A stretch of 64,000 bases of DNA from Bacteroidota bacterium (GCA_012960515.1 DUBD01000191.1:164-64163), one strand, 5' to 3'; numbered from the stretch's first letter, positions 1,577 through 64,000 are shown. The notes: generated by a model from the letters alone, not told the origin. Made by a program: numbers and translations.

Positions 1577-2563
1577 ATGCTCCCCGACTGGGCGCCCAAC
1601 GTCCACCCCCTCGTCGTCCACTTCCCCATCGCGCTCCTCTTCGTCGGAGCGCTCGTCGACGCCGTCGCGCTCGTCGTCCGCGACCGACACCCCTGGGTCC
1701 GCACCTCCGCCGTCGGGCTCTACGCCCTCGGCGCGCTGGGCACGGTCGCCGCCTTCTTCACCGGGCGCGACGCCTCCGACGAGGTCGACCTCCCCGTCCG
1801 GGCGCTCACGACGCTGAACGCCCACGCCGACTGGGCGCTCTACCTCGTGTGGTTCGCCAGCCTCTACGCCGCCCTGCGAGTGGCCGTGCTGTACTGGCGG
1901 CGCGAGTACCGTCTCGCCATTCACCTCCCGGTCGCGCTCCTCGGGCTGGCGGGCCTCCTGCTCGTCCAGCAGACCGCCGAGCGCGGGGGGCGGCTCGTCT
2001 ACGAGTACGGCGTCGCCGTCGCCGCGGCCTCTGGCGACCACGACGGCATGGACACGAGGGATCCGTCCAGCGCACCGCCCGACACCTCGGTCGCAGCCCG
2101 CCTCGACGTGCTCGCGGGCGCCCCCGCCGAGGGCTCCGTCTTTACCGTCACGCCCGGCCAGCCGACGCTCGCCGTCCTGCCGGACACCCTCGGCGACCTC
2201 GAAGCTCGGGCCACGCTCGACCTCTCCGGCTTCACCGGCACCGCCTCTCTCGTCCACCACCTCCAGGACGGCCAGACCTACGACTTCCTCGCCCTCGACC
2301 GCACGGCCTCTGGCGCCGTGACCCTCCGCCAGGGCCGCGTCGAGAGCGGCGACGAGACCACGATGGACAGCGGGACCGCGCCGCTCGACGGCCCCGCCGA
2401 GATCCGAGCCTACGCCGTTGGCACCCACTTCCGGGGCTACCTCGGCGGCGAGCAGCTCACGCACCCCCACGCCGACGCCGCCCCGCCCGGCCGCGTCGGG
2501 CTCCGCCTCGACGGCCAGGGCGCCGTCCGCGTCCTCGCCCTCTCGGCCACGCCCGTCGAATAG
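1577..2563 (+). CDS. DUF2231-like membrane protein with C-terminal beta-sandwich domain
   Basis: HPLVVHFPIAL motif, four TM helices, HADWA and GGRLVY motifs, then a beta-strand-rich soluble domain. Confidence 0.75.
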   Translation: MLPDWAPNVHPLVVHFPIALLFVGALVDAVALVVRDRHPWVRTSAVGLYALGALGTVAAFFTGRDASDEVDLPVRALTTLNAHADWALYLVWFASLYAALRVAVLYWRREYRLAIHLPVALLGLAGLLLVQQTAERGGRLVYEYGVAVAAASGDHDGMDTRDPSSAPPDTSVAARLDVLAGAPAEGSVFTVTPGQPTLAVLPDTLGDLEARATLDLSGFTGTASLVHHLQDGQTYDFLALDRTASGAVTLRQGRVESGDETTMDSGTAPLDGPAEIRAYAVGTHFRGYLGGEQLTHPHADAAPPGRVGLRLDGQGAVRVLALSATPVE

Positions 2564-2626
2564 GGGAGGGGCCGCGCCGGGCCGGTTGGGAGCCAGCGCC
2601 GCCTCTTCACCCCGTCTTGTCCCCCT

Positions 2627-2646
2627 ACCTGAGAGCCTTTTAAGGC
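2627..2646 (+). promoter_or_regulatory. Candidate operator, copy 2 (ACCTGA-N8-TAAGGC)
   Basis: Intergenic, 60 bp upstream of copA. Confidence 0.6.
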
Positions 2647-2706
2647 GCACAGCCGCACTTCGGGACCGCTGCCCCGTTTGAACGACAGCATCCAACTCCG
2701 CCTCCG

Positions 2707-4683
2707 ATGGACCGTCGACACTTTATCCGCAACGCCTCCGCCTTCGGAGCGCTCGCGGGCCTGAGCGCTCTCACGCCCGCCTGGGCACGCTCGCCCCTCA
2801 CGCACGGCCCGCTCCGCCAGCCCGGCCTCCAGCCGACCGTCCGGCGCCGGGGCTTGGTCGAGTACGACCTCACGATCGACCGGACGCCGCTCGCCTTCGG
2901 GGGGCGGACGGGCTCGGCCGTGACCATGAACGGGAGCGTGCCCGGCCCGCTCTTGCGGTTCACCGAGGGCGACGAGGCCGTGATCCGCGTCCACAACCGG
3001 CTCGACGAGATGACGTCGGTCCACTGGCACGGGCTCATCCTCCCCAACGACCAGGACGGCGTGCCCCACGTCAACTTCCCCGGCATCGAGGCCCGCTCGA
3101 CGTTCGAGTACCGCTACCCGATCCGCCAGTTCGGAACCTACTGGTGCCACAGCCACTCGGCGTTCCAGGAGCAGCTCGGCCACTACGCCGCGCTCGTCAT
3201 CGACCCGGCCGGGCCGGAGCCCTACGCCTTCGACCGCGAGTACGTGATCGTGCTCTCGGACTGGACGTTCGAGGACCCCCACGACGTCCTCGACAACCTC
3301 AAAAACCGCCCGAACTACTACAACTTCCAGCGCCAGACGGTCGCGGGCCTCCTCGCGGGCGAGGGGATGGGCGCCCGAGAGCGCATGAACTGGGAGCGGA
3401 TGCGGATGGACCCCACCGACATCTCGGACATCACGGGGGCCACCTATACGTTCCTCATGAACGGGCAGGCCCCGGACCCGGGGTGGAGCGGGCTGTTCCG
3501 CCCCGGCGAGCGCGTCCGGCTCCGGTTCATCAACGCGGCGGCCATGACGTTCTACGACGTCCGCATCCCGGGCCTCCCGATGACCGTCGTCCAGGTGAGC
3601 GGCCAGCACGTCGAGCCGGTCGAGACCGACGAGTTCCGGATCGGCGTGGCCGAGACCTACGACGTCGTCGTCGAGCCCGCCGACCGGGCCTACACCCTCT
3701 TCGCCGAGGCCATGGACCGCTCGGGCTACGCCCGCGGCACGCTCGCGCCCCGTCCCGGCATGACGGCGCCCGTGCCGGAGATGCGGGACCGCCCCTCCCT
3801 CACCATGATGGACATGGGGATGGCGCACGGCGGCCCCGGCATGGACCACGCCGGGATGGGCATGGGCGACCACTCCGGCATGGACATGGGCGGGGAGGCC
3901 GCCGCCCCGATGGAGGGCATGGACCACGGCGCGATGGGCCACGAGCCCCCGGCCCCGGACCACCCCGCTGCCGCGGCCCCGATCATGGCCCACGGCGACC
4001 ACGCCCAGAGCGCCGACGAGGTCGCCATGCCCGGCGTCGACAACGCCGGCCTCCGGCCTCCGGGCGCCCTCCCCGACGTCACGCCCCACGGCGCCGACGA
4101 CCACGGCATCGCGAACGCCATGGCCCCGGACCAGACGCGCTCCCGGCTCCACGAGCCCGGCATCGGGCTCGGCGACGACGGCCGCCGCGTCCTGGTCTAC
4201 ACCGACCTCCGCGCGCTCCACCCCGAGCCGCGCCGGGCGCCCGACCGCGAGGTCGAGCTCCACCTCACGGGCAACATGGAGCGCTACATGTGGGGGATCA
4301 ACGGGAAGACCTACGCCGAGGACCCCCTCATCCCGATGGTCTACGGCGAGCGCCTGCGGCTCACCATGGTCAACGACACCATGATGAACCACCCGATGCA
4401 CATCCACGGGATGTGGATGGAGCTCGAGAACGGCCACGGCCAGCGCATCCCGCGCGTCCACACGGTCGTGGTGAAGCCGGCCGAGCGGGTCTCGGTCCTC
4501 CTCGAGGTCGACGCCCTCGGCCCGTGGGCCTACCACTGCCACATCCTCTACCACATGGACCTCGGCATGTTCAGGGTCGCCATGGTCCAGCGGCCCGACG
4601 ACTGGGACGCGGAGACGCTCGCCGAGATGTACCCGTCGGGGCTCCCGGCGGGCTTCCCGCGCCGCGACCTCGCCCGCGGCTAG
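2707..4683 (+). CDS. copA: CopA-family multicopper oxidase (Tat-exported)
   Basis: DRRHF Tat signal; HWHG, WCHSH, HPMHIHG and HCHILYHMDLGM copper motifs; Met/His-rich insert. Confidence 0.95.
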   Translation: MDRRHFIRNASAFGALAGLSALTPAWARSPLTHGPLRQPGLQPTVRRRGLVEYDLTIDRTPLAFGGRTGSAVTMNGSVPGPLLRFTEGDEAVIRVHNRLDEMTSVHWHGLILPNDQDGVPHVNFPGIEARSTFEYRYPIRQFGTYWCHSHSAFQEQLGHYAALVIDPAGPEPYAFDREYVIVLSDWTFEDPHDVLDNLKNRPNYYNFQRQTVAGLLAGEGMGARERMNWERMRMDPTDISDITGATYTFLMNGQAPDPGWSGLFRPGERVRLRFINAAAMTFYDVRIPGLPMTVVQVSGQHVEPVETDEFRIGVAETYDVVVEPADRAYTLFAEAMDRSGYARGTLAPRPGMTAPVPEMRDRPSLTMMDMGMAHGGPGMDHAGMGMGDHSGMDMGGEAAAPMEGMDHGAMGHEPPAPDHPAAAAPIMAHGDHAQSADEVAMPGVDNAGLRPPGALPDVTPHGADDHGIANAMAPDQTRSRLHEPGIGLGDDGRRVLVYTDLRALHPEPRRAPDREVELHLTGNMERYMWGINGKTYAEDPLIPMVYGERLRLTMVNDTMMNHPMHIHGMWMELENGHGQRIPRVHTVVVKPAERVSVLLEVDALGPWAYHCHILYHMDLGMFRVAMVQRPDDWDAETLAEMYPSGLPAGFPRRDLARG

Positions 4684-4725
4684 CGCGCGGACGCCGGCCC
4701 CCGACCTCCCCCCGACCTCCCCACC

Positions 4726-5502
4726 ATGACCCGCCTCCCGACCCTCCTCGCTGCCGCGCTGGCGCTCGCCGCCAGCGGCCCGGCCCTCGCCCAGGGCGAC
4801 CCGCCCCCGTTCCCCGAGTACCCTGCCTTCCGGCCGGGCGCCGTCGCGGCGGCCGACCAGGACCTCTTCTCGCTCGCGCTCCTCGACATCTTCGAGCTGG
4901 CGCCCGCCGCCGACGGCCTCCCCGCGCGGCTGGAGGGGTTCTACCGCATCGGGACCGACTACAACCGGCTCTTCGTCCGCGCCGAAGGCGAGGGGCTCAT
5001 CGCCGAGGGCGAGGGGGAGGCCGAGGTCCAGGCCCTCTACAGCCGCCTCGTCACGTCCTACTTCGAGGCGCAGGCCGGCCTCCGCCTCGACACCGAGTTC
5101 GGCGACGGCGGGCTCCGCGCCCGGCCCCAGCTCGCCGTCGGGCTCGAGGGGCTCGCGCCGTACTTCTTCGAGGTCGAGCCCTTCCTCTTCCTGAGCTACA
5201 AGGGCGACCTCTCGGCCCGGCTGGAGGGCTCCTATGACCTTCTCCTCACGCAGCGCTTGGTGCTCCAGCCCGAGGCCGAGGTGACGCTCGCGCTCCAGGA
5301 GGTCGAGGACTGGGGCGTCGGCTCCGGCCTCAACGATGTCGAGGTCGGCCTCCGCCTCCGCTACGAGGTCCGCCGAGAGGTCGCCCCCTACGTCGGCGTC
5401 TCGTGGCTGAACCGCTTCGGCGGGGCCCGCGACTTCGCCCGCGCCGAGGGCGAGCCGACCTCGGAGGCACTCGTCGTCTTCGGCCTTCGCCTGTGGCGCT
5501 AG
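4726..5502 (+). CDS. copB: Copper resistance outer-membrane protein B
   Basis: Signal peptide, [31 protein letters not shown]; follows copA. Confidence 0.92.
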
Positions 5503-5533
5503 CCCCCTCAATCCCTCTACGACCCTCACACCG

Positions 5534-6571
5534 ATGAACACCACCCGCACGCTTCTTGTCGTAGCCGCCCTCCTGGCCGCGCCCTCCGCCCTCGCTCAAC
5601 AGCACGAGGGCATGGACCACTCGGGCATGGACCATTCACAGACGGAAGGGACGGACCACGGCGCGATTCACCACGATGCCATGATGGCGCTCCACCTGCG
5701 CATGATGGCCGACCCCGAGGTCCACGCCGCCATGAAGGCCGACCCCGAGATGCAGGCGCTCATGGCCGAGATGATGCCCGCGATGGACCACTCGGGCATG
5801 GACCACTCGCAGATGAGCGGGATGGAGCACGGCGAGACGCCGCACGAGATGCCGATGGACGCCGACGCCCGGGCCGCCATGATGGCCCGGATGCGCGAGC
5901 GGATGCAGGCCATGACGCCAGAGGCCCACGCCGCGTTCATGGCCCGGATGGAGGCCGTCCACACCCGCCTCATGGCCGAGCCCGCCGTCCACCAGCGGAT
6001 GATGGCCGACCCCGAGATGCGCCGGATGATGGAGGCCATGCCAGGCGGGATGGACCATGGTTCGATGGACGGCATGGATCATGGCCAGATGCAGGGGATG
6101 GATCATTCTCAAATGCAGGGCATGGATCACTCGGGCATGGACCACGCCGCCGGTGTCGCCATGCAGCGGCGCAACGCAGGCGCTCCCAACGGCGACGAGC
6201 GCCCCGCGACGCCCACTGTCGGCCAGGCCGAGTTCGACGCCTCCGCCACGGCCGACCGGTTCCACGCCGCCCTCGCCTCGGGCGACCGCGCTACCATGGA
6301 GGCCCTCCTGCTTCCCGACGCCGTGGTCCTGGAGGGCGGGCGCGCCGAGGCCCGCAACGAGTACCTCAGCGGCCACTTCGCCCGCGACGCCGCCTTCCTC
6401 GCCGACGCCCAGCCCGAGCCGCTCTTCCGCCGCACGACGGTCGCGGGCGACGCCGCCTGGGTCGCCTCCACCCAGCGCGTCCGCGATGCTGAGATGGCCG
6501 AGCTCCTCGTCATGACGCGGACGGCCGAGGGCTGGCGCGTCGCCGCCGTCCACTGGTCGTCGGCCCGCTAG
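5534..6571 (+). CDS. Secreted Met/His-rich protein with C-terminal NTF2/DUF4440-like domain
   Basis: Signal peptide (ALA-Q), repeated [12 protein letters not shown]-terminal ADRFHAAL...WRVAAVHWS. Confidence 0.8.
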
Positions 6572-6581
6572 TCCCGAACGT

Positions 6582-6986
6582 TTGATCGCCTTCGGCTCGG
6601 GCCTCTTGGCCGCACTGGCGGTCATCGTCGCCGCGCGCGCGTCTGGTTTCGACCGCGGGCGCTCGTTTTATCCGACGGTCCTCGTCGTCATCGCACTCCT
6701 TTACGTCCTGTTCGGGGTCGAATCCGGAGCCGCCGAGGCCGTCGCTGCAGAGACGGTCGTCGCGCTCTCATTCATCGCGCTGGCGGTCGTCGCCTTCCGA
6801 CGCCGCTCCTTCGCGCTCCTCGCCGTCGGGCTCGCGCTCCACGGCCTCTGGGACATCGCGCACCCTTTCGTGCTCCCCGAGAGCGACGGCGTTCCCACGT
6901 GGTGGCCCGCGTTCTGCCTCGGTGTCGACCTCCCGCTCGCAGCCTGGGCGTTCTGGGCGTGGCCGCCCTCGCCCGGCTCCACCTGA
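6582..6986 (+). CDS. Small 4-TM membrane protein (DUF6010-like)
   Basis: TTG start; hydrophobic helices; HGLWD and WWPAFCLGVD motifs. Confidence 0.65.
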   Translation: MIAFGSGLLAALAVIVAARASGFDRGRSFYPTVLVVIALLYVLFGVESGAAEAVAAETVVALSFIALAVVAFRRRSFALLAVGLALHGLWDIAHPFVLPESDGVPTWWPAFCLGVDLPLAAWAFWAWPPSPGST

Positions 6987-7000
6987 GCGTCTTTTAAGGG
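6981..7000 (+). promoter_or_regulatory. Candidate operator, copy 3 (ACCTGA-N8-TAAGGG)
   Basis: Overlaps the upstream stop codon, about 50 bp before the methyltransferase GTG; an extra TTAAGG half-site lies at 7025-7030. Confidence 0.55.
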
Positions 7001-7048
7001 TCGCAAGGCCGCAAAACCGCGTTGTTAAGGGGCCACCCCTCGGCCCCC

Positions 7049-8372
7049 GTGATTCTCGACGCGCTCGTCCCTCTCCTCCGCTGCCCGGCGTGCGGCGGAG
7101 CCCTCGCCCTCGACCGCGCCCCCCAGCCCGACCCCGAGGCGGGCGACTGCGGCGTCCTCCGGTGCCCGTGCAGCGCCGACTACCCCGTTCTCGACGGGGT
7201 CCCCGTCCTCCGCACCGGCACGCTCGACCGCCGCTCCATCGCTGACGACCGCGTCCTCGCGCCCGGCCCCAGCGTGGCCGCCGTCGTCTCGCGGGTCGAG
7301 GCCGGAGAGGCGCTCGGCGCTCTCGTGGATCTCCTCGCGGCCCCCCTCTGCCCGTGGCCGCTCCACAAGGTCGCCGCACTCCGGCGCCTCAGCCTCCGCG
7401 AGCCGCTCCGCTCCGCCGGCCTCGCGCTCCGCCGGCCTCGCGCTCCGCCGTCGGCGCGTCCGCGCCATGCTCCGCAGCCGCGACGCGCTCACGGCCGAGG
7501 ACTGGCTCGCCAGCTTCTACTGGCACGCGCCCGAGGTCTACGACCCGTTCAACTACTTCTTTTTCCGATTCGGGACGCCCCGCCACCTCGCCACGCTCGG
7601 CCTCGTCTCGGCCCTTCCTGACACCGCCGCGCCCGTCCTCGACCTCGCCTGCGGCTACGGCCACCTCGCCCACACCCTCTCCGCTCAGGGGCGGGCCGTC
7701 GTCGGGCTCGACCAGAACCTCCACCAGGCGTGGCTGGCCCGCCACTACGTCGCTCCCGACGCGGCCTTCGTCTGCGCCGACGCCTCGCGCCCACTCCCCT
7801 TCGCCGACGGGGCGTTCGGGGCCGCCGTCTGCTCCGACGCCTTCCACTACGTCCGCGACAAGAGGGGCGCGGTCGCCGAGCTGGACCGGACCACGAATGG
7901 CGGGCCGCTCCTCTTCCCGACCGTCGGCAACGCCCTCGTCGGCGAGCCCGACGGCCACGAGTTGGCGCCCGACGCCTACCGCGCCCTCTTCGAGGGCTGG
8001 CACGTCCGCGTCACGTCCGACGACGCCCTCTTCCGGCGCTACCGGGACGGCCTCGGCCCCGACCTCGCCGACCCCGAGCCGGACGGCGCCCGCTGGCTCG
8101 CCCTCGTGGCCACGCGCCACGACCCCGCGCCCCTCCTCTGCGACCACGGACCGCTCGACGGCTGGCCCCACGCCGCCGGCCGCCTCGCCCTCAACCCGCT
8201 CTACGAGCCAGAGGGGGACCGCTACGCGCTCCGGCTCCCGTCGCCGTGGTACGAGGCCGAGAACGGCGGCCTCCGGGACTACATGCCGCCCGCCGTGGGC
8301 CGTGGCGCCGAGCCCACGCCGGACCTCGTCGCTCGTGCCGCGTTCGTGGGGCTGCCGGAGCGGTACGCGAGA
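7049..8372 (+). pseudogene. Class I SAM methyltransferase with N-terminal Trm112-like Cys motif; frameshifted
   Basis: LRCPACGG and LRCPC N-terminus in one frame; VLDLACGYG motif I in the next frame. The frames are separated by a 16-bp tandem duplication at 7410-7441. The end is approximate because no stop remains in frame. Confidence 0.75.
7410..7450 (+). repeat. 16-bp tandem duplication GCTCCGCCGGCCTCGC x2 plus partial copy
   Basis: Copies at 7410-7425 and 7426-7441; removing one restores a single reading frame. Confidence 0.85.
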
Positions 8373-8442
8373 CGCCGCGGCCCCGCGTCGTCGCGGCCAA
8401 CCGGGCACTTTCCGCGCTTCTCGGGCGGGGGAGGGGCACGTG

Positions 8443-8462
8443 ACCTGAGCGGGATTTCAGGT
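8443..8462 (+). promoter_or_regulatory. Candidate operator, copy 4 (perfect GACCTGA-N8-TCAGGTC)
   Basis: Perfect 7-8-7 inverted repeat at 8442-8463, about 65 bp before the Cu-ATPase ATG at 8529. Confidence 0.65.
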
Positions 8463-8528
8463 CGCGTCCCGATCCTGCCAGCGGCGTCGGCGTTGGACGA
8501 CGGCCCTTCTCCTGCCGACCTGCGCACG

Positions 8529-10788
<2,260 letters not shown>

Positions 10789-10791
10789 CCC

Positions 10792-11781
10792 ATGACGATC
10801 CTCCTCGCGGCCCTCGGCGCGGTCGTCGTCGCTGTCGCGCTCTACGACGTCCTCAAGACGACGCTCTCCGCTCAGGGCGGGGCGCCGCTCACGAGCGCGC
10901 TCTCGGCCGGGCTGTGGGCGATCCTCGGGCGTGGGCCCGCCCACGGCCTCCCGCGCCGCGCTGCGGGCGGCGTCATCCTTACGGCCGTCCCCGTCGCCTG
11001 GACGCTCCTCTTGTGGACCGGCTGGACCATCGTCTTCGCCAGCGCCGACGGCGCCGTGGTCGACGCCTCCTCGCAGACGCCCGCCGACCTCCCCGCCCGC
11101 GTCTACTTCGTCGGGTTCACGCTCTTCACGCTCGGCAACGGCGACTACGTCCCGTCCGGGGGCGCGTGGCAGGTTCTGACCGCCGTCGCCTCGTTCACGG
11201 GCCTCTTCCTCGTCACGCTCGCGATCACCTACCTCCTCCCCGTCGTCCAGGCCGTCGCCGAGAAGAGGTCGCTCGCGGGCCGGATCCACTCGCTCGGGGC
11301 AACGGGCGTCGAGATTGCGGCCCAGGCGGGCGGACCGGGCTCCAGCCTGGAGCGTCAGCTCGAGTCCGCCGCCGCCGACCTCACGCTCCACGCCGAGCGC
11401 CACCTCGTCTACCCCGTCCTCCACTACTTCGCGAGCGACGAGGCCCGGACGGCCCTCGCCCCCCGCCTCGCCGCGCTCAGCGACGGGCTCCTCCTCCTCC
11501 GCCACGGGCTCCCCGAGGCCGACCGGCCCGACCCGACCGCGCTCGGCTCGGTCGAGGGCGCCCTCGACGACTACCTCGCGACCGTCCGCGGCTCGCTCGC
11601 GAGCCCGTCCGAGGAGGCCCCGCCGCCCCCGCCGTCCGCGGGTCTGGACCGCACGGCGCCCGAGGCCGACCGAGACCTCGCCGATGCGGCCCGCCAGCGC
11701 GACGACCAGCGCCGACTCCTCCGGGCCGTCGTCCGCCAGAGTGGCCACGACTGGCCAGGCGCGGTCGGCACCCAGTCGTGA
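10792..11781 (+). CDS. Potassium-channel-family (2-TM pore) protein
   Basis: YFVGFTLFTLGNGDYVP pore-like loop between TM helices; C-terminal YPVLHYF. Confidence 0.8.
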   Translation: MTILLAALGAVVVAVALYDVLKTTLSAQGGAPLTSALSAGLWAILGRGPAHGLPRRAAGGVILTAVPVAWTLLLWTGWTIVFASADGAVVDASSQTPADLPARVYFVGFTLFTLGNGDYVPSGGAWQVLTAVASFTGLFLVTLAITYLLPVVQAVAEKRSLAGRIHSLGATGVEIAAQAGGPGSSLERQLESAAADLTLHAERHLVYPVLHYFASDEARTALAPRLAALSDGLLLLRHGLPEADRPDPTALGSVEGALDDYLATVRGSLASPSEEAPPPPPSAGLDRTAPEADRDLADAARQRDDQRRLLRAVVRQSGHDWPGAVGTQS

Positions 11782-11841
11782 ACCTGGAGGGAACAACCAA
11801 CGGAGGGCTGGCGACGGGGAGGGGAGTGGGGTATCCTACGA

Positions 11842-11857
11842 TTGAGCCATGACTCAA
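11842..11857 (+). promoter_or_regulatory. Candidate ArsR/SmtB operator TTGAG-N6-CTCAA overlapping its own start
   Basis: Inverted repeat spanning ATG 11849; ArsR-family regulators typically autoregulate. Confidence 0.35.
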
Positions 11858-12265
11858 GCGACCACCGACTCCTGCGACGTCCGCCGTGTCCACCCTGACG
11901 CGGTCGATGCTGCGCGCGCCGCGCTGGCGGCACGAGAGGGCGACCTCGACGGCGCTCGTGCGCTCTTCGCCGCGCTCGGCGACCCGACCCGGCTCCGGCT
12001 CCTCGCAGCCCTCCAGGCCGGGCCGCTCTGCACCTGCGACCTCGCGGCCACGCTCGACGTGAGCGAGTCGGCCGTGAGCCACCAACTCCGAGGCCTGCGC
12101 GCGTTGCGCTTGGTCGCGAGCGACCGCGACGGCCGCGTGGTCTACCACCGGCTCGACGACGACCACGTGGCCGCCCTCCTGGATGTCGCTGCCGAGCACG
12201 TCGCCGAAGGAGTGGTTGAGGGTGAAACGCGACCGGCCGATACTGCGTTGGCCCCCTCCGCATGA
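11849..12265 (+). CDS. ArsR/SmtB metalloregulator
   Basis: ALGDPTRLRLL, LCTCDLA, SAVSHQLRGLR, DDHV...EHV. Confidence 0.93.
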   Translation: MTQATTDSCDVRRVHPDAVDAARAALAAREGDLDGARALFAALGDPTRLRLLAALQAGPLCTCDLAATLDVSESAVSHQLRGLRALRLVASDRDGRVVYHRLDDDHVAALLDVAAEHVAEGVVEGETRPADTALAPSA

Positions 12266-12621: not shown

Positions 12622-12782
12622 GGACCGTCCGCACGCCTGACGTAGGCGCGTCGAGCTAGCCGCTCGCGCCGCCCCGTGTGGACCGCCACGTCTGTTGGAG
12701 ACGTGGCCGCTACTCCGCCCCGCCCGCCCCGGTGATCCCGCCGAGGCCGTCGGGTCCCCCCCTCCGTAGCCGGTCCTCCGTC

Positions 12783-17330: not shown

Positions 17331-17334
17331 ACCC

Positions 17335-17589: not shown

Positions 17590-17622
17590 CCCCGTTCCCC
17601 GACCCACGGGACCCCAACTCCG

Positions 17623-18849: not shown

Positions 18850-18853
18850 ACCG

Positions 18854-49327: not shown

Positions 49328-49539
49328 GGGGGACCGCGAGCAAGCCGGTCCGTGAGCCTGCGGATCGCCCGGTGGACCACGCTCGGTCCGGGGAGACCCA
49401 TGTGGGGGGGCGCTGCCCTGGGCACGGGGCCTCGCTCAAAGGTGCACGCGGGTAGGGCTGCGCTCGCTGTCAACGGCGCATGCGGGCCCGTAGAGGCGGC
49501 CAGTTCACAAGACCGTGCACCTTTGCCCAGTGGAACCGT

Positions 49540-52397: not shown

Positions 52398-52398
52398 C

Positions 52399-53793: not shown

Positions 53794-53804
53794 CGGAGGT
53801 GGGG

Positions 53805-56348: not shown

Positions 56349-56359
56349 CGGGGCGAGAA

Positions 56360-56387
56360 GCCTCTGGCGCACGGCGACGCCAGAGGC
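56360..56387. repeat. Inverted pair of the GCCTCTGGCG 10-mer forming a hairpin
   Basis: GCCTCTGGCG-CACGGCGA-CGCCAGAGGC between two co-oriented genes. Confidence 0.8.
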
Positions 56388-56399
56388 CTCGTCGGTGGG

Positions 56400-57230
56400 C
56401 TAGAACTGGCAGGCCGGGTCGTCCGGGTCGTAGCCGCCCGAGTAGCACACGCACTTGCAGCCGTCGTCGGCGGGCAGATTGCAGTCGCCGCAGATGTCGT
56501 CTCCGGCGAGGGCGTTCCAGCCGCTGACGGCCAGCGCCCAGAGCGAGAAGAGCCCGGTGGCGACGTTGGCCTCTTGGACGTCTAGGTGGGCGCTCGTCTC
56601 GGCCGACGCGTCGTGGCCGTCAGTATGGGTGGGTAGCGCGCCGCCGACGACCGAGCCGAGCATGGCGAGGAGCATCAGGGTGGCGGCCATGCGATGCGCC
56701 GTCTCGACCAGGCGCGTCCCGACGCCGCGTCCTCCGCTCCCGCCCGTGTCGCCAGGGTCGTCGGCCATCTCGGCCGCGACCCGGTCCTCGTGGGCGCTCG
56801 CGCGGATGCCGCCGAGGGACGCCGCCAGCGTGGCGCGTAGGGTCGGCTCGGTACCCACGGGCCGGTTGTCGCCGCCTGCCGGGTCGCTCGAAGCGGATGG
56901 CGAGCGGTGGACGACCTTGCGCCGGTCGGGCGGTGCGGCGGCGTGGTCGGGCGCCGGGCCGTCCTCGCTGCCGCCCGTGCCGCCGGCCTGGCTGGACACC
57001 GAGCCGTGGCTCTCGTCCTGGTCGCGGCGACGGCTCGGAGGATCGTGGGGGTTCGGCGGATCGCCTCCGGCGGTGGGCTGGCGGTGGATGATCTTGCGCC
57101 GGTCCCCCGTCTGCGGGTCGGGCGCCGGGGCGCCCTCGTTGTTGATGACGCGCCGCCGGTCGGAGGCGGGGTCGTGCGAGGGGTCGAGGGTGCCGTCGGC
57201 AACGGGGAGAGTGGGAGCGAGAGCGCTCAT
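56400..57230 (-). CDS. Hypothetical protein: repeat-rich N-terminus, two hydrophobic helices, six-Cys C-terminus
   Basis: DRR(K/R)(V/I)(I/V) x3; ends CGDC...CKCVC...CQF. Alternative GTG start at 57452. Confidence 0.7.
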   Translation of the reverse strand: MSALAPTLPVADGTLDPSHDPASDRRRVINNEGAPAPDPQTGDRRKIIHRQPTAGGDPPNPHDPPSRRRDQDESHGSVSSQAGGTGGSEDGPAPDHAAAPPDRRKVVHRSPSASSDPAGGDNRPVGTEPTLRATLAASLGGIRASAHEDRVAAEMADDPGDTGGSGGRGVGTRLVETAHRMAATLMLLAMLGSVVGGALPTHTDGHDASAETSAHLDVQEANVATGLFSLWALAVSGWNALAGDDICGDCNLPADDGCKCVCYSGGYDPDDPACQF

Positions 57231-57448
57231 GGCAGGCGGGCTCGAACGGCCCGTGGCTGGGGCCTTCGTCCTGACGCGGTCTCGGCCGCGCCAGATGTCT
57301 GGCGGTGGTTGAGGGTGTCGGCCTCGCGGCCCGGGTGGGCGACGAGGCTGTTCGGCCGCAGGCGCGGCCAGGGCCCTGCCGCACAGATGCGCGGCGGGAC
57401 CCTCCGGCGGGCAGGCGTGAGGGCACACGCGGCCCGCCGGTGTCGGGC

Positions 57449-57880
57449 TCACCCGGTGACGGTGAGGTCGTGGAGGGTGCGTGGGTCGTCGGGCGTGGGG
57501 CCCTGCTCGTGGCCGCCGTCGCCGCCGGGGTCCTGGTCGGTCCCGACGCCCTGGCTGCCGCCGTCCCCGCTGGCGGTCGCTAGGTCGTGCAGGTCTGGGC
57601 CGATGCTGAGAGCGGCGTGCGTGCCGCCGCCCTGGTTTCCACCGTCGCCCTCGGGATCGTCGTCGGTGCCGACGCCGCTCGTGCCTCCGTCGCCACCGGG
57701 ATCGGCGCCAGAGGCGTCGAACGCGAACGCACGGGGAGCGGGTGGAGGGTCGCCTGGTTCGTGGCCGCCGTCGCCGCCGGGGTGCGTGTCGACGGTGAGG
57801 GAGAGCGCGTTGTCGGGCGCCGGTCCGTCTTCGGAGCCGGTGTCGGGGTCGGTGGCTCGAGAGGCAGGGAGGTCGGGCAT
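57449..57880 (-). CDS. Gly/Asp-rich repeat peptide ((P/S)xGDGG x5)
   Basis: 143 aa with PGGDGGHE, PGGDGGTSGVGT, PEGDGGNQG, SGDGGSQGVGT, PGGDGGHEQ. Confidence 0.65.
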   Translation of the reverse strand: MPDLPASRATDPDTGSEDGPAPDNALSLTVDTHPGGDGGHEPGDPPPAPRAFAFDASGADPGGDGGTSGVGTDDDPEGDGGNQGGGTHAALSIGPDLHDLATASGDGGSQGVGTDQDPGGDGGHEQGPTPDDPRTLHDLTVTG

Positions 57881-57953
57881 GGCCGTGGGGGTGTGGGACG
57901 CGCTGGCGGATGGGACCGGACGGCGCGGCCAGCGCGCACCGTCCCGGGTCGGG

Positions 57954-59102
57954 TCACTTCGACTCCGGCCTCGGGGTGAACATGAAGAGCACCCGGAAGA
58001 CGCGGAAGACGAGGTAGCCGAGGACGGTGACGAGCGTGAGGACGATGTAGAGGTCGGTGTTGCGGACGCCGATCATGAGCACCCGGAGCGCCCCCAGCCC
58101 GATGAGGAAGAAGACGTAGACCAGCCCGAGGTTGAAGAAGGGCGCGTCGTCGCGCGACTGGAGATCGCGGACGTCCTGCTCGGTGACGAGCTTGGACTGC
58201 GCGCCGTCGTGCATCATGGCGCGGAGGATGGCCGGGTTGCCCTCGGCGCGGCGGAGGACTTCGCGGCGGTAGTGGCGGCGGTCGGCGCAGGCGACGGCGT
58301 AGCGCGAGACGAAGTACTCGAAGAGGGCCGCCGTGTGGGCGTCGCCGAGCGGCTCGACGTGGATCTGGCCGAACGTGGCGATAAACGTGCGGAGCGAACG
58401 GCTCTGGGGCAGCGACCGGATGGCGCCGATGACGGTGGCGCGCTGCTGGATCTCGCGGAGGAAGAGGCCCTGAGACGGCGACGCTCGGTCGAGCGCGTCG
58501 AGCACGACGAGCAGGCGCGGGGCACGGCCCCCGCCGGCGAGGTCGTGGAGCGACTCGACGACGGCGGTCTGGCGCTCGTCGACGGTGCGGAGCAGCTTTT
58601 TGACCTCGGCCCAGTCGTACTCGTCGCAGGCGCCCGCGCGCATCTGCGGCGGGATGCCAGGAAGGGCGAGGATGCCGAGCCCGTGGAACGCCTTCGCGAG
58701 CGCGTCCACGAGGCGACCGTTGGGCCCGGCCTCGGCGACGTAGACGAGGGTGTAGGCCTCGCCGGGCGTCTGCGGCATCTGGACGTACTTCCGCCGGGCG
58801 CGCGTCTGGGCGGCGCCGTCGAGAAGCACGCGTCGGCCCGCAACGACGGCGGCGAGGTCTTCCAGGAGGCGCGTCTTGCCGACGCCCTCGTCGCCCAGGA
58901 GGAGCGTGTGGCGACCGAGGACGGCGCGGTCGACGAGTTCGGCCAGGACGTGGCCGTTGCCGAGGCGGATGGGGTCCGTGAGGACGGTGCAGTCGGGCGC
59001 TCCGGGAACGCCGACTGGACGGAGCGCCCCGACCGACTGGCCGGGCGCCGCGAGGGCGTCGGGCCGGGAGATCGCCGAGAGCCGGGGAGCGGTCGAGAGC
59101 AT
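57954..59102 (-). CDS. P-loop (AAA-like) ATPase with two C-terminal TM helices
   Basis: LLGDEGVGKT, VVLDALD, GNP; C-terminal hydrophobic hairpin. Confidence 0.8.
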   Translation of the reverse strand: MLSTAPRLSAISRPDALAAPGQSVGALRPVGVPGAPDCTVLTDPIRLGNGHVLAELVDRAVLGRHTLLLGDEGVGKTRLLEDLAAVVAGRRVLLDGAAQTRARRKYVQMPQTPGEAYTLVYVAEAGPNGRLVDALAKAFHGLGILALPGIPPQMRAGACDEYDWAEVKKLLRTVDERQTAVVESLHDLAGGGRAPRLLVVLDALDRASPSQGLFLREIQQRATVIGAIRSLPQSRSLRTFIATFGQIHVEPLGDAHTAALFEYFVSRYAVACADRRHYRREVLRRAEGNPAILRAMMHDGAQSKLVTEQDVRDLQSRDDAPFFNLGLVYVFFLIGLGALRVLMIGVRNTDLYIVLTLVTVLGYLVFRVFRVLFMFTPRPESK

Positions 59103-60578
59103 CTATCGGTGGAGCCTCGTCCAGAGCCGGGTGACGTCGTGCACGACGGGGTCGTCGAGGTGTCCGTTGGCCGCGTGGAAGGCGAGGAGCTTGCCCGCGA
59201 CCTCCTCGTAGGTCTTGGCGCGACCGCGCTTGAAGAAGTGCCAGCGCTTGGGCGGCTCATCACACAGGAGCGCGCGGAGGTAGCGGACGGCGTCGACTGC
59301 GGCGACCGGGCTGGCGATGCCGGTCTCTTCGAGAACGTGGGCCTCGTGGGCGACGGCGCGGTCTCGTCCCACGGCGTCCTCGAAGAGGGCGAAGACCTCG
59401 GTGCGGAGCCGGTCGAGCTCCGTCGCGAGGGGGTGGCGCGTGGCCGCCTGCGGCGCCGGGGGTGGGGAGGACGGGAGCGCGGCCATCGTGGGGGCGCTCG
59501 GGGCCTCTGGCGGGGCAGGCGGCTCGGCGTGAGCGGAGCCGTCGCCAGAGGTCATCGTGATCGTTTCGGCTGGCTCGCTGGCGCCAGGCTCCGGTGCGGG
59601 GGGAGGACCCATCGCGTTCAGGACTAGACCGCTCTGGGAGAGGGGGCCAGCGGGAGAGAGGGAGGTGCCTGGAGATCCGCCCTGCAATTCCGCGACGAGG
59701 GCGCCGAGGCCCGTCGCGTGAGGGTGGCTGGGCTCGACGAGGCGAGGGCGCTCGGCGCGTTCGCGGAGGTAGCTCTCGACGGCCTCAGCCTGATCGTCGG
59801 CTAGCGTCGCGCCCGGATCGGCGACGGGTGGAAGAGCGAGGGGCGCCGTCTCGCCAGAGGCCCCTCGGCGGGCGAGCGCGAGGCGGTTGGCCTGCTCGAT
59901 GACGCCGTCGAGGTCGAAGGCGCGGTCGCTCCGGTCGGGGAGCGTCGCGCGGTTTTTCGCCCGGTCGTAGAGCAGGACGCGCCCGGTGACGCCGTCGAGG
60001 TGATGGGCGAGCGTGGTCGCGAGCTCGTCGTTGGGCGCGCCGTCTTCGGCCGAGCCGGTGAGGTCAGCGAGGTCGAGGAGAAGAACGCGAGGGCGGTCGG
60101 GGTCGGAGAAGTCGTTGACTTCGAGGACGCCGCCTCCGCAGCCGGAGCGCGCGATCTGGCGCGCGACGAGCTCGGCGGACTCGCGGCCGTCGACGTGGAG
60201 CTTGAGGCACTCCGCGTAGAAGACGGTCTCGAGGAAGCGGGCGCACTCCGGCTCCGCCAGCTCGAAGAGGCTGAGGAAGGCGTCATGGCCCGCGTCGCGG
60301 TGCTCGATGAAGCGCGCGAGCGCCGAGGCGGGCGTGACCGGGAAGCGGTAGTCCGGCGTGGTGCGGGCGACGGTGAGGAGCTGCCCCGACGAGGCCACGA
60401 AGGTGTCGTAGGTCGGTCCGAGGGTCCCGTGTCCGTCGCCAGAGGCGGTCTCACCGTGGGCTCCGTACCGGACGACGATGAGCGACACGACCCCCTGGGC
60501 CTGCTGGTCGGCGAGGCCTACCGGGTCCGCGAAGGACGCCGGGACGTGCTCGAAGATGGGGTGTGCCGTCGTGAGCAT
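59103..60578 (-). CDS. Hypothetical protein (globular N-terminal domains, Pro/Ala linker, helical C-terminal domain)
   Basis: 491 aa; TGATG-coupled to the upstream gene; abuts the AAA gene. Confidence 0.7.
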   Translation of the reverse strand: MLTTAHPIFEHVPASFADPVGLADQQAQGVVSLIVVRYGAHGETASGDGHGTLGPTYDTFVASSGQLLTVARTTPDYRFPVTPASALARFIEHRDAGHDAFLSLFELAEPECARFLETVFYAECLKLHVDGRESAELVARQIARSGCGGGVLEVNDFSDPDRPRVLLLDLADLTGSAEDGAPNDELATTLAHHLDGVTGRVLLYDRAKNRATLPDRSDRAFDLDGVIEQANRLALARRGASGETAPLALPPVADPGATLADDQAEAVESYLRERAERPRLVEPSHPHATGLGALVAELQGGSPGTSLSPAGPLSQSGLVLNAMGPPPAPEPGASEPAETITMTSGDGSAHAEPPAPPEAPSAPTMAALPSSPPPAPQAATRHPLATELDRLRTEVFALFEDAVGRDRAVAHEAHVLEETGIASPVAAVDAVRYLRALLCDEPPKRWHFFKRGRAKTYEEVAGKLLAFHAANGHLDDPVVHDVTRLWTRLHR

Positions 60579-61378
60579 CAGGGTGCGGGGGCGCGGTCGC
60601 CAGGAGCCTCTGGCGAGGCGAGCGCGAGGTCGGGGTCGCCACCGGCGTCGAGCGTGGCGAGACGGGCGGCGTTCGTGGCCAGTGCGTGCTCGGCCGAGAG
60701 GAGCGCCAGGCGTTGGCGCGCGAGCCCCTCGTAGTCGAGGTCGCCCTGTTCGTACTTCATCTCGGCGAGGCGTGTCAGCTCCCGCTGGGCCTCGACGCGG
60801 CGGGCGAGGTAGTCGGCCTCGATGCGGAGCTGGACCGCGGCGAGGTCGGCGCGTCGCTGCTGCTCGGCCTCTCGCTCCCGTTCGTCCGCCTCGCGCTCGG
60901 CACGAGCGATGATGCGCTCTCGGGCCTGGGCCTCCTGGCGCTCGCGTCGGGCGTGGTGGAGGTCGATTCGGGCCTCGGCGAGCGTGACGGCGGCGCGGGC
61001 GCGGTGGAGGGGGCGGCGGTCGAGGAGCTGTTCGAGCGACCACGAGGCCGTGACGCCCCACGTGTCGCCGGGCCAGCGCGCGATGGCGGCGTAGGCGGGG
61101 TCGTAGCCCTGGGACGAGATGGAGGGGAAGGCGAGGCCGCGCGTGGAGACGCTGAGGAAGAAGTCGAGCTGGGGCCGGAGGCGCGCAAGGCCGGAGGTCG
61201 CACGCAGCTCCAGCCGGGCGAGGTCGAGACGGGCCTCCTCAATGCGGAGCGCGGCCGTCGACGTGTCGGCGGCGAGGAAGAGATCCGCGAGGGGATCGCC
61301 GCTGCCGAGCGGAGCGGGCTCCTGACCGTGGCAGACGGCCGAGCCGAAGAGGGCGAAGACGAGGAGGACGAGGCGCAT
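60578..61378 (-). CDS. Short TolC/OEP-like secreted protein
   Basis: Signal peptide; coiled-coil helices, WGVTASWSLEQL strand, KYEQGDL motif. About half the length of TolC. Confidence 0.6.
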   Translation of the reverse strand: MRLVLLVFALFGSAVCHGQEPAPLGSGDPLADLFLAADTSTAALRIEEARLDLARLELRATSGLARLRPQLDFFLSVSTRGLAFPSISSQGYDPAYAAIARWPGDTWGVTASWSLEQLLDRRPLHRARAAVTLAEARIDLHHARRERQEAQARERIIARAEREADEREREAEQQRRADLAAVQLRIEADYLARRVEAQRELTRLAEMKYEQGDLDYEGLARQRLALLSAEHALATNAARLATLDAGGDPDLALASPEAPGDRAPAP

Positions 61379-61383
61379 CGGTC

Positions 61384-61731
61384 TCAGGCGTGGGCGGGCT
61401 CGGGCGCGAGCGCCTGGAGGGACGGCGCGTCGGCCGGGTCGAGGCCGGCGGCTCCGGCCAGCGCCTTGAGAAAGCCGTCCCCAAGGACGGGGCGACGCTC
61501 GAAAAGGGCCAGCGTCTGGCTGGCCAGTTCGGCGTGGAAGCCGGGCGGCATCGCGTGGTAGTGCTCGCAGTGGTGGAGCCGGAGCGCGGCGTAGGCCTGC
61601 CGGTCGTGGTCGCGGCCGGTGGCCTCGAGCGCGTTGCGGACGACGCAGATGTCGAAGCGGTGCGAGGTCAGCATCCGGTAGAGCGCGAGGGCGACGGACC
61701 GGCGGCGGAAGGGGTCGATGGTGTCGAGCAT
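61384..61731 (-). CDS. Hypothetical protein with FDIC...LHHC motif
   Basis: 115 aa; HRFDICVV...YAALRLHHCEHYHAM. Confidence 0.6.
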   Translation of the reverse strand: MLDTIDPFRRRSVALALYRMLTSHRFDICVVRNALEATGRDHDRQAYAALRLHHCEHYHAMPPGFHAELASQTLALFERRPVLGDGFLKALAGAAGLDPADAPSLQALAPEPAHA

Positions 61732-61848
61732 GGTGGCACCTGCGGTGCGGGACTGGGGACTATGCGCTGTCGCGCCGGGACTGGGGACTGGCAAGGGGCG
61801 CGTACTCCCTGTTCCCGAGTCCCTAGTCCCGCGCGAGCGAAGCGAGCG

Positions 61849-62733
61849 CTACCCCTCCGTGTTCTCGCGGATCACGACGCCGTCACCGCCCCGCTGCTTG
61901 GTCTGGCGGAAGGTGCCGTTCACGTAGTCGTTGCGCGAGACGACCGAGCCGTCGGCGGTGTCGCCGGAGGAGAGGAGCGTCCGGAGCAGCGTGCCGGTCA
62001 CGTTGCCCTCGGCGTCGATGGCGAAGTCGGCGCCGTAGTAGCGCGTGCGGACCGAGCCGTCGGGGCCGCCGTCGCGGAGCGTACCCGTCCCGTTGGTATT
62101 GAGCGTGGCGACGGGCTCGCGGACGGTGACCGACTCGCGCAGCTCCTGGTTGGCGTAGCTCACGACGGCCTCGCCCTCGGCGGGCGAGTAGACCTGGGCG
62201 ACGCGCCACGTGTCGTAGGTCGAGAAGCTGGCCTCGGCGTCGTTGGAGGCGCCGGTGAGGTAGGGGATGGAGCCCGCCTGGAGCGCGGAGACGAAGCCCA
62301 CGAGGTCGGCGTAGGTGAGGAACGAGAGCGTGACCGACTCGACGGCGTCCAGGCCGCCCACGTCGCGGGCGTGCTGGACGCGGGCCTGCCAGACGCCGAC
62401 GCCCTGGGGCTCGCGGTACTGGAGCTGGACCAGGAAGCCCTTGGCGTTGACGGCGTCGTAGACGCCGGTGTAGGTCGTCGTGTCGACGCGGGCGCTCATC
62501 GAGGCGAGCGCAGTGGCGCCCGTCGCGGAGGCCGCGCGAGCGGCGGAGCCCGAGTCGCCGAAGCCGAGGGAGAAGAGCTCCTCCACTTCCTCAAAGGCTG
62601 CGGTGACGAGCGCCGATTCGTTCGCGGAGATGGGCTCGATGGGATCGGGGCCCGTGGGGCCGTCCGTCGGGATGGTGGCGTCGCAGGCGGCGAGGAGCAG
62701 CGCCAGAGGCGCGAGAAGGAGAACGCGGAGCAT
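61849..62733 (-). CDS. Hypothetical lipoprotein
   Basis: LLAAC lipobox; beta-rich body. Confidence 0.8.
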   Translation of the reverse strand: MLRVLLLAPLALLLAACDATIPTDGPTGPDPIEPISANESALVTAAFEEVEELFSLGFGDSGSAARAASATGATALASMSARVDTTTYTGVYDAVNAKGFLVQLQYREPQGVGVWQARVQHARDVGGLDAVESVTLSFLTYADLVGFVSALQAGSIPYLTGASNDAEASFSTYDTWRVAQVYSPAEGEAVVSYANQELRESVTVREPVATLNTNGTGTLRDGGPDGSVRTRYYGADFAIDAEGNVTGTLLRTLLSSGDTADGSVVSRNDYVNGTFRQTKQRGGDGVVIRENTEG

Positions 62734-63030
62734 GGTGTGGTTGAGGGTGCGCCCGTCGAGGGCTGGGGAGGCCGAGAGCGGCCGGGGAGAGGCGAGGGCA
62801 CGCCTCTGGCGGAGTGCCAGCTTGGCTGGCATGGGGGGCCGCTGAGCGGCCCAGGGGAGCCTCCTCCTCCACGCCGCGTAGACGGGTGCAGGATCGAAGC
62901 TCTCCGGTCGCGCAATGCGCGGCCATGGTTGACTTGCGTCGACCTATCGGTTGAGGGTGTCGGTTCGGGTCTTCGGACCGGGCGGCCACCGGGGCAGGGC
63001 TAACAGTCCCCGGTGGCCGTCTCTGTGTGG

Positions 63031-64000
63031 TTAGAGGTCGGGGGAGCGGTCGAGCGCGCCGGGACGCGGCGCGACGAGCACGACGCGGACCTCGGTGCGG
63101 TCGGGCCCGAGGGCGCGGGTCTCGATGCGGCGGACGACGCCCGCGCCAGAGGAGCGGACGATCCCGTCCCGCGAGGCGGTGGCGTGGCGGAGCCGAGCCC
63201 GACGGAGACGGGCGGCGGCCTCGCGGACGCGCTCGGCCTGGGTGCGCTGCCAGGCATCGGCGCGAGCGGCGGACTGGGACTCGGCGGCGGCGAGCTGGGC
63301 GCGGAGATCGGCGGCCCGGGCACGAGCGGACTCTAGGGCGCGCGCAGGCTCGAAGCCCTGGGCGTGACGCTCGGCGATGCGTCGGGAGGCGTCCTCGGCC
63401 TGGGTGAGCCGCTGGCGGAGCGCGACGGGGTCGGACGCCAGAGGCGGACGTGCGCTCTGTGCGGCGGCGAGGGCGGCCTGCGCCTCGGCCACGTCGAGGC
63501 GGGCGGTGACGAGCGCCGACGAGGTGAGCACGGCGATCGTGTCGCCGACGGCGACGGTCTGGCCTTCCTGAACGAGGAGGCGGGGCGGCTCGGACGGCTT
63601 GTGGGCAAACGTCACGCGGCGGACCTCGGAGCGAGCCGTGTCCTGGGGGTCGTAGTCCTCCGCCTCGCCCTCGCGTGTAAACACGCGGAGTGTGACGGAG
63701 CCCTGCTCGACGAGGAAGCCCGAGAGGTTCAGGCGGTCGAGGTCGGCGAGCGTCGCGAACTGGAGCGAGAGCCGCTTCTCCGTGCCCGTGACCGTGTCGA
63801 AGCGGAACTCGTCGGGCGTGACGCCCGCGGCCTCGGTGAGCGTGACCTGTCCGTCGATAAGGTGGCGGACGGGCTGGCCGTCGGGACCATCGGGCACGAG
63901 CGACTCGAGGTCGGCGAGGACGCGGCCGTCGAGCGTGATCTGGCGGCGGGAGACCTGGACGCGGTCGCCCCGGTGCGCGATGACGCGGTCGGGCTGGAAG
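63031..64000 (-). CDS. Protein with C-terminal HlyD/biotinyl-lipoyl-like and coiled-coil region (5' end beyond window)
   Basis: Frame is open to the window edge; LLVQEGQTVAVGDTIAVL, coiled coil, VRSSGAGVVRRI. Confidence 0.65.
   Translation of the reverse strand, partial: FQPDRVIAHRGDRVQVSRRQITLDGRVLADLESLVPDGPDGQPVRHLIDGQVTLTEAAGVTPDEFRFDTVTGTEKRLSLQFATLADLDRLNLSGFLVEQGSVTLRVFTREGEAEDYDPQDTARSEVRRVTFAHKPSEPPRLLVQEGQTVAVGDTIAVLTSSALVTARLDVAEAQAALAAAQSARPPLASDPVALRQRLTQAEDASRRIAERHAQGFEPARALESARARAADLRAQLAAAESQSAARADAWQRTQAERVREAAARLRRARLRHATASRDGIVRSSGAGVVRRIETRALGPDRTEVRVVLVAPRPGALDRSPDL

Follow-up and report, generated by a model that had tools for sequence, protein, structure and literature searches.

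A ten-base word on a Rubricoccaceae plasmid contig is the hyperabundant word of sister species and resembles DNA uptake sequences

Short DNA words that are hyperabundant in a genome are known from several bacterial groups. The DNA uptake sequences (DUS) of the Neisseriaceae fall into dialects (Frye et al. 2013, PMC3630211), while the uptake signal sequences (USS) of the Pasteurellaceae reshape the proteome, with USS-encoded tripeptides being over-represented (Findlay and Redfield 2009, PMC2817400). HIP1 (highly iterated palindrome 1), a hyperabundant cyanobacterial word, is bound by two orphan methyltransferases and is conserved between genomes (PMC4390886, PMC5861425); a further report describes it as boosting transformation in a way that depends on methylation (PMC13756078). 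Absence of HIP1 has been used to spot transferred genes and its function is debated (PMC3497702, PMC5861425). The subject here is a 10-base word, GCCTCTGGCG (hereafter X), found in a 64,000-nucleotide stretch of DNA (the window; G000:C191:164-64163) within the 85-kb contig C191 of a Bacteroidota bacterium (assembly GCA_012960515.1, here G000; 3.88 Mb, 298 contigs, 71% GC). X proved not to be the word of this genome but that of sister species in the same genus. To our knowledge, the only firm cases of sequence-biased DNA uptake come from two proteobacterial families, with no receptor known for the Pasteurellaceae. X, at up to 4.4% of a genome, is the densest word of this sort that we know of; we are aware of none described in its phylum.

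An exact search found 29 copies of X in the window (10 in + and 19 in - orientation), against 0.61 ± 0.86 (maximum 4) in 100 dinucleotide-preserving shuffles, which bears out the over-representation reported in an initial annotation of this DNA. All 28 coordinates given there are right, and one copy, at 5916 (-), had been missed. The whole of contig C191 carries 36 copies where Markov models predict 0.9 (order 1), 1.6 (order 3) or 4.1 (order 5). With one mismatch allowed there were 68 matches in the window (19.7 expected), and conservation among the copies stops at the 10 bases. As had been noted, X occurs on both strands, in several frames and both in genes and in spacers: 24 copies lie inside called genes (13 sense, 11 antisense) and five outside, a split that is approximate, the genes having been called with an in-house codon model. 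The readings in genes are ASG (12), PEA (6), RQR (4), PLA (2) and ARG (1); LWR, which had also been listed, is absent from the window. A polarity of X relative to the GC-skew arms of the window, at first suggested by 21 of the 29 copies pointing one way, was dropped, given the near-equal sense and antisense counts and the lack of polarity in a closed relative.

Across the whole G000 assembly X is found 100 times, compared with 103 for the reversed word. These copies are concentrated on contigs C191 (36), C141 (12), C146 (8) and C168 (3), and the remaining 3.74 Mb contain 41 where 42 to 52 are expected (Markov order 1 to 3). X is therefore not enriched on the chromosome of its apparent host, an outcome that had been named at the outset as counting against X as a host word. 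The picture is quite different in relatives. When 40 of them were counted over the whole genome, with the reversed word as control, X was present 14,211 times in the 4.4 Mb of G002 (control 61; 3.2 per kb) and 16,991 times in the 3.9 Mb of G004 (control 50; 4.4 per kb), taking up about 4% of these genomes, whereas the other 38 were at or near background (at most 164 vs 71 in the control). G002 and G004 are congeneric with G000. Markov-corrected counts, which had been proposed as a check, show no enrichment of X in G000 outside the four contigs, and X belongs to these two sister species in the same genus, not to G000 itself. Matching by an 18-base X palindrome identified G004 as OY970187.1 ('MAG: Rubricoccaceae bacterium MFD03250.bin.2.52', MAG being metagenome-assembled genome), a closed chromosome of 3.86 Mb, and the genus accordingly lies in the Rubricoccaceae (Rhodothermales).

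One of the four contigs, C146, is chromosome-like and has a normal density of the word described next, yet carries eight copies of X in about 9 kb (G000:C146:11001-21500). Recent import from G002 or G004 was considered and rejected, as no close homologue occurs there, only paralogue-like matches of 69 to 77% over the X-bearing part; this stretch is possibly further DNA from an unsampled X-type lineage.

G000 has a hyperabundant word of its own, GCTGGCGG (H), present in 8,186 copies (about 2.1 per kb, five times its reversed control). Outside C191, C141, C146 and C168 there were 8,081 copies, compared with 588 to 1,292 expected from Markov models. On C191, C141 and C168 the density of H is only 0.63 to 0.66 per kb, against 2.16 per kb in G000. 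Both strands carry H equally (4,135 + and 4,051 -), and strand counts per contig fit a fair coin (chi2/df 0.91, p 0.72). Adjacent copies are inverted in 61% of pairs. Inverted pairs of H recur at start-to-start distances of 27 (150 times), 11 (76), 9 (102) and 6 (68), and the flanks are partly conserved (75% of copies have C at -6 and 64% have it at -3), suggesting composite palindromic units.

The behaviour of X in a home genome was followed in 35 stretches of G004, each of 20 kb and one per 100 kb (700 kb in all). They contain 3,048 copies (4.35 per kb, about 4.4% of bases), 1,564 on the + strand and 1,484 on the - strand, with no strand switch round the closed chromosome. Density is halved in two stretches of low GC, and copies occur in all frames. 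The unit measures exactly ten bases, its flanks being random. In X-type genomes adjacent copies are inverted 60 to 65% of the time, and overlapping 18-bp palindromes (GCCTCTGGCGCCAGAGGC, 224 in the G004 sample, and CGCCAGAGGCCTCTGGCG, 102) are far above other neighbour arrangements; although X itself is asymmetric, about 21% of copies sit in such palindromes. The 30 one-mismatch variants add up to approximately 1,017 copies, about a third of the 3,048 perfect ones. Positions 1, 3, 7 and 10 are the most tolerant of change and 6, 8 and 9 the strictest, which is the mismatch profile of a protein-read motif.

In the sampled genes of G004, ASG is the most frequent tripeptide (756 occurrences), and 572 of these are written GCC-TCT-GGC even though TCT makes up 11% of serine codons. 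PEA ranks second, PLA fourth and ARG, with its rare AGA codon, seventh, while LWR, which requires tryptophan, is avoided. It is clear that X overrides coding in G004. In spacers X reaches 8 to 11 per kb, whether these are convergent, tandem or divergent; there is thus no special link to terminators, and a terminator role was rejected.

Composition, codon usage or a repeat element such as a fragment of a miniature inverted-repeat transposable element (MITE) or repetitive extragenic palindromic (REP) sequence might be thought to generate such a word, as GC-rich words abound in a genome of such high GC content. We give this practically no credence: neither the shuffles nor Markov models as high as order 5 account for the observed counts, X is written with the rare codons TCT, AGA, CCT and CCA, its flanks are random, it lies in genes in several frames, and short-read contigs of a public run match the window sequence without differences. 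A codon or composition artefact, which the initial annotation had thought possible, was rejected on the strength of the shuffles, the Markov models and the use of rare codons. A longer REP- or MITE-like element, which would have a conserved unit and be confined to intergenic DNA, was rejected given the random flanks and the roughly 58% of G004 copies that lie within called genes.

X sites are conserved within the X-type lineage and replaced outside it. Of 38 sites in G002, 30 are also X in G004 (79%, vs 14% expected), the two genomes having 82% nucleotide identity. At 76 to 79% identity to G000, none of 1,061 G004 sites and none of 21 G002 sites is X in G000. At some orthologous sites GCC-T-CTGGCG in G004 corresponds to GCC-G-CTGGCG in G000, and 43 of 635 aligned H sites of G000 read TCTGGCGG in G004.

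Other family members, covered by short samples and then by whole-genome word counts, have further words. CCGAGGCGG occurs 8,494 times in G003 and 4,795 times in G001 (controls about 250); two further genera include three genomes in which it stands at 7 to 8 times its control. It is found on both strands in two sampled stretches of G006:C1, and a suspected strand skew beyond 92 kb on that contig was discarded for this reason. CGAGCTGGCG was counted 5,010 times in G005 (control 118), and GGGCGGGGCG has a density of 3.15 per kb in a 40-kb sample of G019; both belong to neighbouring genera. No strong word was seen in nine sampled genomes of the family. One genus therefore holds three words (X, H and CCGAGGCGG) and the family at least five. 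CTGGCG is common to X, H and the G005 word, and GGCG to all five.

How a word owned by sister species came to be in the window depends on the nature of C191. From its gene content, which includes RepA and ParA, C191 is a plasmid or plasmid-derived element. ParA is encoded at 46535-47182 and a RepA-family initiator at 47391-48851; the sole database relatives of the latter are plasmid genes for 'replication initiator protein A' (27 to 31% identity). The GC-skew flip at about 32 kb reflects convergent gene orientation, and a phage origin for the tightly packed left arm was rejected as its genes are for metal resistance.

The copies of X fall into three patches and a single copy at 46380. Patch A (2027..8748; X at 2027+, 2306+, 5916- and 8739+) covers copper-resistance genes, namely those for a DUF2231 protein and a SnoaL-like protein and the start of a P-type ATPase gene. 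It is followed by a metal-resistance island on the + strand (8749..32881; P-type ATPases, CzcA-OEP fusion, HlyD, CDF, ZIP, multicopper oxidase, SCO1 and cupredoxin) with no X in 24.1 kb, a gap with P = 1e-6 if 29 copies were evenly spread. Patch B (32882..37371) has eight copies (32882-, 33376-, 34420+, 34781-, 36435-, 37123-, 37241- and 37362-) across a methyltransferase-like gene and umuD/umuC. An X-poor block on the - strand (37372..49799), with the lone copy at 46380+, encodes ATP-grasp and large unknown proteins (defence-like), ParA and RepA. Both gaps had been described in the initial annotation and stand. Patch C (49800..63445) has 16 copies (49800-, 50792+, 52620-, 53870-, 54158-, 54416-, 56360+, 56378-, 57706-, 59503+, 59852-, 60437-, 60606+, 62701-, 62802+ and 63436-) and covers an ABC transporter, two endonuclease I genes, an AAA ATPase and unknown genes. 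Two of these copies form an inverted pair, GCCTCTGGCG-N8-CGCCAGAGGC (56360..56387), a potential hairpin spanning the first codons of the gene at 53805-56372 and part of the 27-bp spacer that separates it from the gene at 56400-57230.

Patches B and C are syntenic with contig C10 of G002 (72 to 79% nucleotide and 58 to 82% amino-acid identity), a 139-kb replicon that must be circular as its match to C191 wraps across its ends. Patch B corresponds to 24.4-30.3 kb of C10 (73 to 77% nucleotide and 77 to 82% amino-acid identity), and patch C, from 52.4 kb of the window onward, to 0.4-14 kb of C10 (72 to 79% nucleotide identity). C141, C168 and part of C68 of G000 are also homologous to C10. In contrast, patch A has no homologue on C10, the metal islands of the two replicons share only 37 to 45% amino-acid identity, and the X-poor block at 37372..49799, RepA included, is not shared apart from a 29%-identical ParA match.

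Within 21.7 kb aligned between C191 and C10, C191 has 13 X sites, and eight of them coincide in position with X in C10, where identity of about 77% would lead one to expect 7% (0.77^10). Compared with none of 1,082 chromosomal sites, this sharing is highly significant (Fisher p = 3e-17). Shared sites include those at 33376, 37123 and 37241 in patch B and at 54158, 54416 and 63436 in patch C. Over the same 21.7 kb C10 has 31 copies of X and C191 has 13. X is scarcer on mobile DNA: C10 carries 0.63 per kb overall, with 1.8 per kb in the shared 0-30 kb and three copies in its 35-kb metal island, compared with about 3.2 per kb for the G002 genome and 3.75 per kb in a 20-kb sample of its chromosome, and the metal islands are nearly free of X. 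In our reading, X-type hosts, which maintain X, were home to patches B and C for most of the time over which these diverged, and the C191 copy then stopped gaining X; it has gained no H above similar DNA elsewhere. Amelioration of the plasmid towards H was considered, as H is 2.8 to 4.9 times low-order Markov expectation on C191 and 1.5 to 2.5 times on the G002 plasmid, and was set aside, this difference being too small to interpret. Neither X nor H is above background in the metal island, the defence-like island or the replication module, which most likely came from elsewhere.

The density of X thus separates DNA of different histories, as the initial annotation had proposed, but its map of resident versus acquired DNA has to be read anew, since the host's word is H. 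X-rich parts of the window are those shared with X-type lineages rather than long resident here, accessory islands and the replication module make up what is free of X, and the plasmid as a whole lacks the word of its present host.

This history presupposes that C191 belongs with G000. A plasmid segment and a G000-type chromosome segment were found together in four of four public runs, including the probable source run (a hydrothermal-vent metagenome) and one labelled as a single organism. Word depths in Logan contigs, plasmid vs chromosome, were about 8.4 vs 6.9 for the source run, about 4.5 vs 3.9 for the single-organism run, and about 11.5 vs 4 and 20 vs 13.6 for two marine metagenomes (ratios of about 1.2, 1.2, 3 and 1.5, respectively). 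Such depths fit a low-copy plasmid of the H-type species, as support and not as proof. If C191 were instead a misbinned plasmid of an X-type member of the Rubricoccaceae in the same sample, no host switch would be needed. Plasmids are often misbinned, C191 has X and little H (0.66 vs 2.16 per kb), and a contig with the X palindrome sits in an Alphaproteobacteria MAG from the sample of G004. The co-occurrence in all four runs at similar word depth, the single-organism run among them, speaks for G000 as host, and 13 copies of X against 31 on C10 are what would be expected if gains had ceased; we therefore regard misbinning as rather improbable, if the least improbable of the alternatives. The Alphaproteobacteria MAG contig (CAWHTQ010000016.1, 4.8 kb) also has a homologue of the metal ATPase of the window (82% over 150 bases) and is itself probably misbinned Rubricoccaceae mobile DNA.

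X acts at the level of DNA. It is asymmetric and non-polar, strongest where constraint is weakest, conserved within a lineage, replaced wholesale from one sister species to another and rare on mobile DNA. The uptake sequences of the Neisseriaceae and Pasteurellaceae bear these population-genetic marks, dialects and a distorted proteome included, and the lineage-specific, uptake-like word postulated from the window alone has held to this extent: X is lineage-specific, hyperabundant, non-polar and frame-independent in the manner of DUS, USS and HIP1, while a function in uptake would follow by analogy. The reading that we favour, to which we give about an even chance, is that X is the species-specific self word of one lineage in an uncultured marine genus of Rubricoccaceae, spread by biased DNA exchange, and that the plasmid is a mosaic that has switched host. 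A sequence-biased step in DNA exchange would favour fragments bearing the word; most probably competence machinery would prefer such DNA, as for DUS and USS, making DNA uptake, on the strength of this analogy, the biased step. Homologous recombination would then spread the word (molecular drive) until selection on proteins halted it, and a change in receptor specificity would give a new dialect. The plasmid would travel at low copy number with an H-type host, patches B and C at least having come from X-type hosts. More generally, and somewhat more tentatively, the Rubricoccaceae may have a sequence-specific DNA-exchange system, acting at uptake or early in recombination, that has repeatedly changed its specificity.

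Genes for ComEC, a small ComEA-like protein, a secretin and type IV pilus-type ATPases are found in the genus or across the family, although a type IV pilus-type ATPase was not found in the incomplete G000 assembly. The neighbours of the secretin gene gave no Pfam match. A full-text literature search found neither X nor H, nor any link between Rubricoccaceae and uptake sequences.

The drive might instead act at recombination. Were the words read by RecBCD as Chi-like self markers, linear DNA bearing them would escape degradation and recombine. RecC is encoded in every word-bearing genome tested and is missing from two word-free genera, H and the Chi of E. coli (GCTGGTGG) differ by a single transition, and the excess of inverted neighbours would suit fragments entered from both ends. 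However, known Chi sites are skewed to the leading strand, and neither X in G004 (1,564 + and 1,484 -) nor H in G000 (chi2/df 0.91, p 0.72) is polar; on this ground the identity with Chi or with FtsK-orienting polar sequences (KOPS) that had been offered as an option fails. Furthermore, a 10-mer at 4.4 per kb is far above any Chi known to us. RecC was rejected as a discriminator, as it is also present in five genomes without strong words. A RecBCD-linked role is retained as an improbable alternative. The RecC match in G004 (G004:C1:2344805-2345552) is split over two overlapping frames in a closed long-read assembly, indicating a frameshift error or a pseudogene.

Methylation or repair could also drive a word, as proposed for HIP1 or very-short-patch repair, if a methyltransferase together with a repair nuclease, or a methylation-dependent exchange step, converted or favoured near-cognate sites. 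HIP1 is itself a precedent of a hyperabundant word with two orphan methyltransferases, and the overlapping 18-bp palindromes of X are far commoner than other neighbour arrangements. Against this, X is an asymmetric word of 10 bases, longer than typical methyltransferase sites, and no one-mismatch variant is depleted as a drive by T:G repair predicts, C-to-T changes at positions 3 and 5 being enriched. No methyltransferase and nuclease pair to match X came to light, although no search aimed at one was made. We think this no likelier than a role of RecBCD. Finally, X may be the binding site of an abundant chromosome-organizing or regulatory protein, with selection holding each site. The conservation of X sites between G002 and G004 is well above background, and a like argument has been made for HIP1 (PMC5861425), but X is densest where constraint is lowest (8 to 11 per kb in every type of spacer) and distorts the proteome. 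Sister species have, moreover, swapped X wholesale for unrelated words, which is hard to fit with thousands of selected sites, and such a binding site seems very unlikely.

Several points weigh against biased DNA exchange and a plasmid that changed host. Competence genes, being present everywhere tested and equally so in relatives without a strong word, do not discriminate between genomes and were rejected for that use. No candidate for a sequence-specific receptor of the ComP kind was identified, and in the literature searched natural transformation is unreported for the Rhodothermales. At 4.4 per kb, X is about four times as dense as DUS or USS. All word-bearing genomes also have RecC, and H is within one base of E. 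coli Chi. Binning can misplace plasmids, and co-variation in depth over four runs supports the link to G000 without proving it; the coding and intergenic shares of X are approximate.

Metal-resistance genes at 1.5-30 kb encode a CopA/CopB-type multicopper oxidase, P-type ATPases, a CzcA-OEP fusion, HlyD, CDF, ZIP, SCO1 and cupredoxin. The methyltransferase-like gene and umuDC lie at 32.3-37.5 kb, the block of ATP-grasp and large proteins at 37.5-46 kb, and the ABC transporter, the two endonuclease I genes and unknown genes at 50.5-64 kb. Two of the metal-resistance proteins join several domains: a P-type ATPase of 1,022 amino acids (7467-10535, +) has an N-terminal SAM-dependent methyltransferase domain (residues about 50-180), and a protein of 1,515 amino acids (12783-17330, +) combines a full AcrB/CzcA-type RND pump (residues 5-1026) with an OEP domain (best-matched stretch 1341-1502). 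The endonuclease I (PF04231) genes adjoin each other (52399-56372, -), the larger encoding a type IX secretion C-terminal sorting domain, and the pair sits on the plasmid segment kept in C10 of G002 (70 to 71% amino-acid identity). Speculatively, secreted plasmid nucleases could hinder the use of external DNA by the host. Elsewhere in G000, word depth at G000:C169:30535-30801 rises over approximately 270 bases with several contig joints, the source run going from about 7 to 322 and another run from about 15 to 627, resembling a short, highly repeated or widely shared element.

If the wider reading of an exchange system with switching specificity is true, mobile DNA retains an 'accent' from the host it was in before, and plasmid host switches between sister species can be read, and roughly dated, from gain and decay of words. 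The words are also sharp markers for binning, for foreign DNA and for plasmid host history in marine metagenomes. The genus is a natural comparative experiment, as sister species with about 75 to 82% nucleotide identity carry three words that look unrelated yet share a core, at 1 to 4 per kb, and whatever protein reads the word must covary with dialect. In the density of X one sees how hard a drive at the level of DNA can press on codon usage and protein sequence. What makes the case stand out is this density, three dialects in one genus and a plasmid bearing the word of a sister lineage.

Among described systems, Chi (GCTGGTGG in E. coli) and KOPS or architecture-imparting sequences are likewise short over-represented words, tied to recombination and chromosome handling. 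Both are polar with respect to replication, whereas X and H are non-polar and have densities 10 to 20 times higher. HIP1 (GCGATCGC) is like X in its hyperabundance both within and outside coding DNA, its conservation from genome to genome and its lack of polarity. It is, however, an 8-base palindrome found phylum-wide, in contrast to the asymmetric 10 bases of X, which are confined to part of one genus.

The USS of Pasteurellaceae (AAGTGCGGT and the Apl type) share with X a proteome reshaped by the word, an excess of perfect over one-mismatch copies and a strictness that varies by position. X lacks the AT-rich flanking segments of USS, and GC content is very different. The DUS of Neisseriaceae (GCCGTCTGAA and its dialects), whose receptor is the minor pilin ComP, differ in that X is from another phylum (Rhodothermales, Bacteroidota/Rhodothermota), has about four times the density (4.4 per kb), is inferred rather than known to bias uptake and has inverted pairs that are not concentrated at gene ends; the three words in one genus of Rubricoccaceae also differ from each other at more than a few positions. 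DUS and X also share several features. Both are short asymmetric words present in thousands of copies, equally on both strands and without replichore polarity, which lie within genes in frames that proteins tolerate and are scarcer on plasmids and in regions of atypical GC. Both show an excess of inverted pairs, and in both related species have dialects round a shared core.

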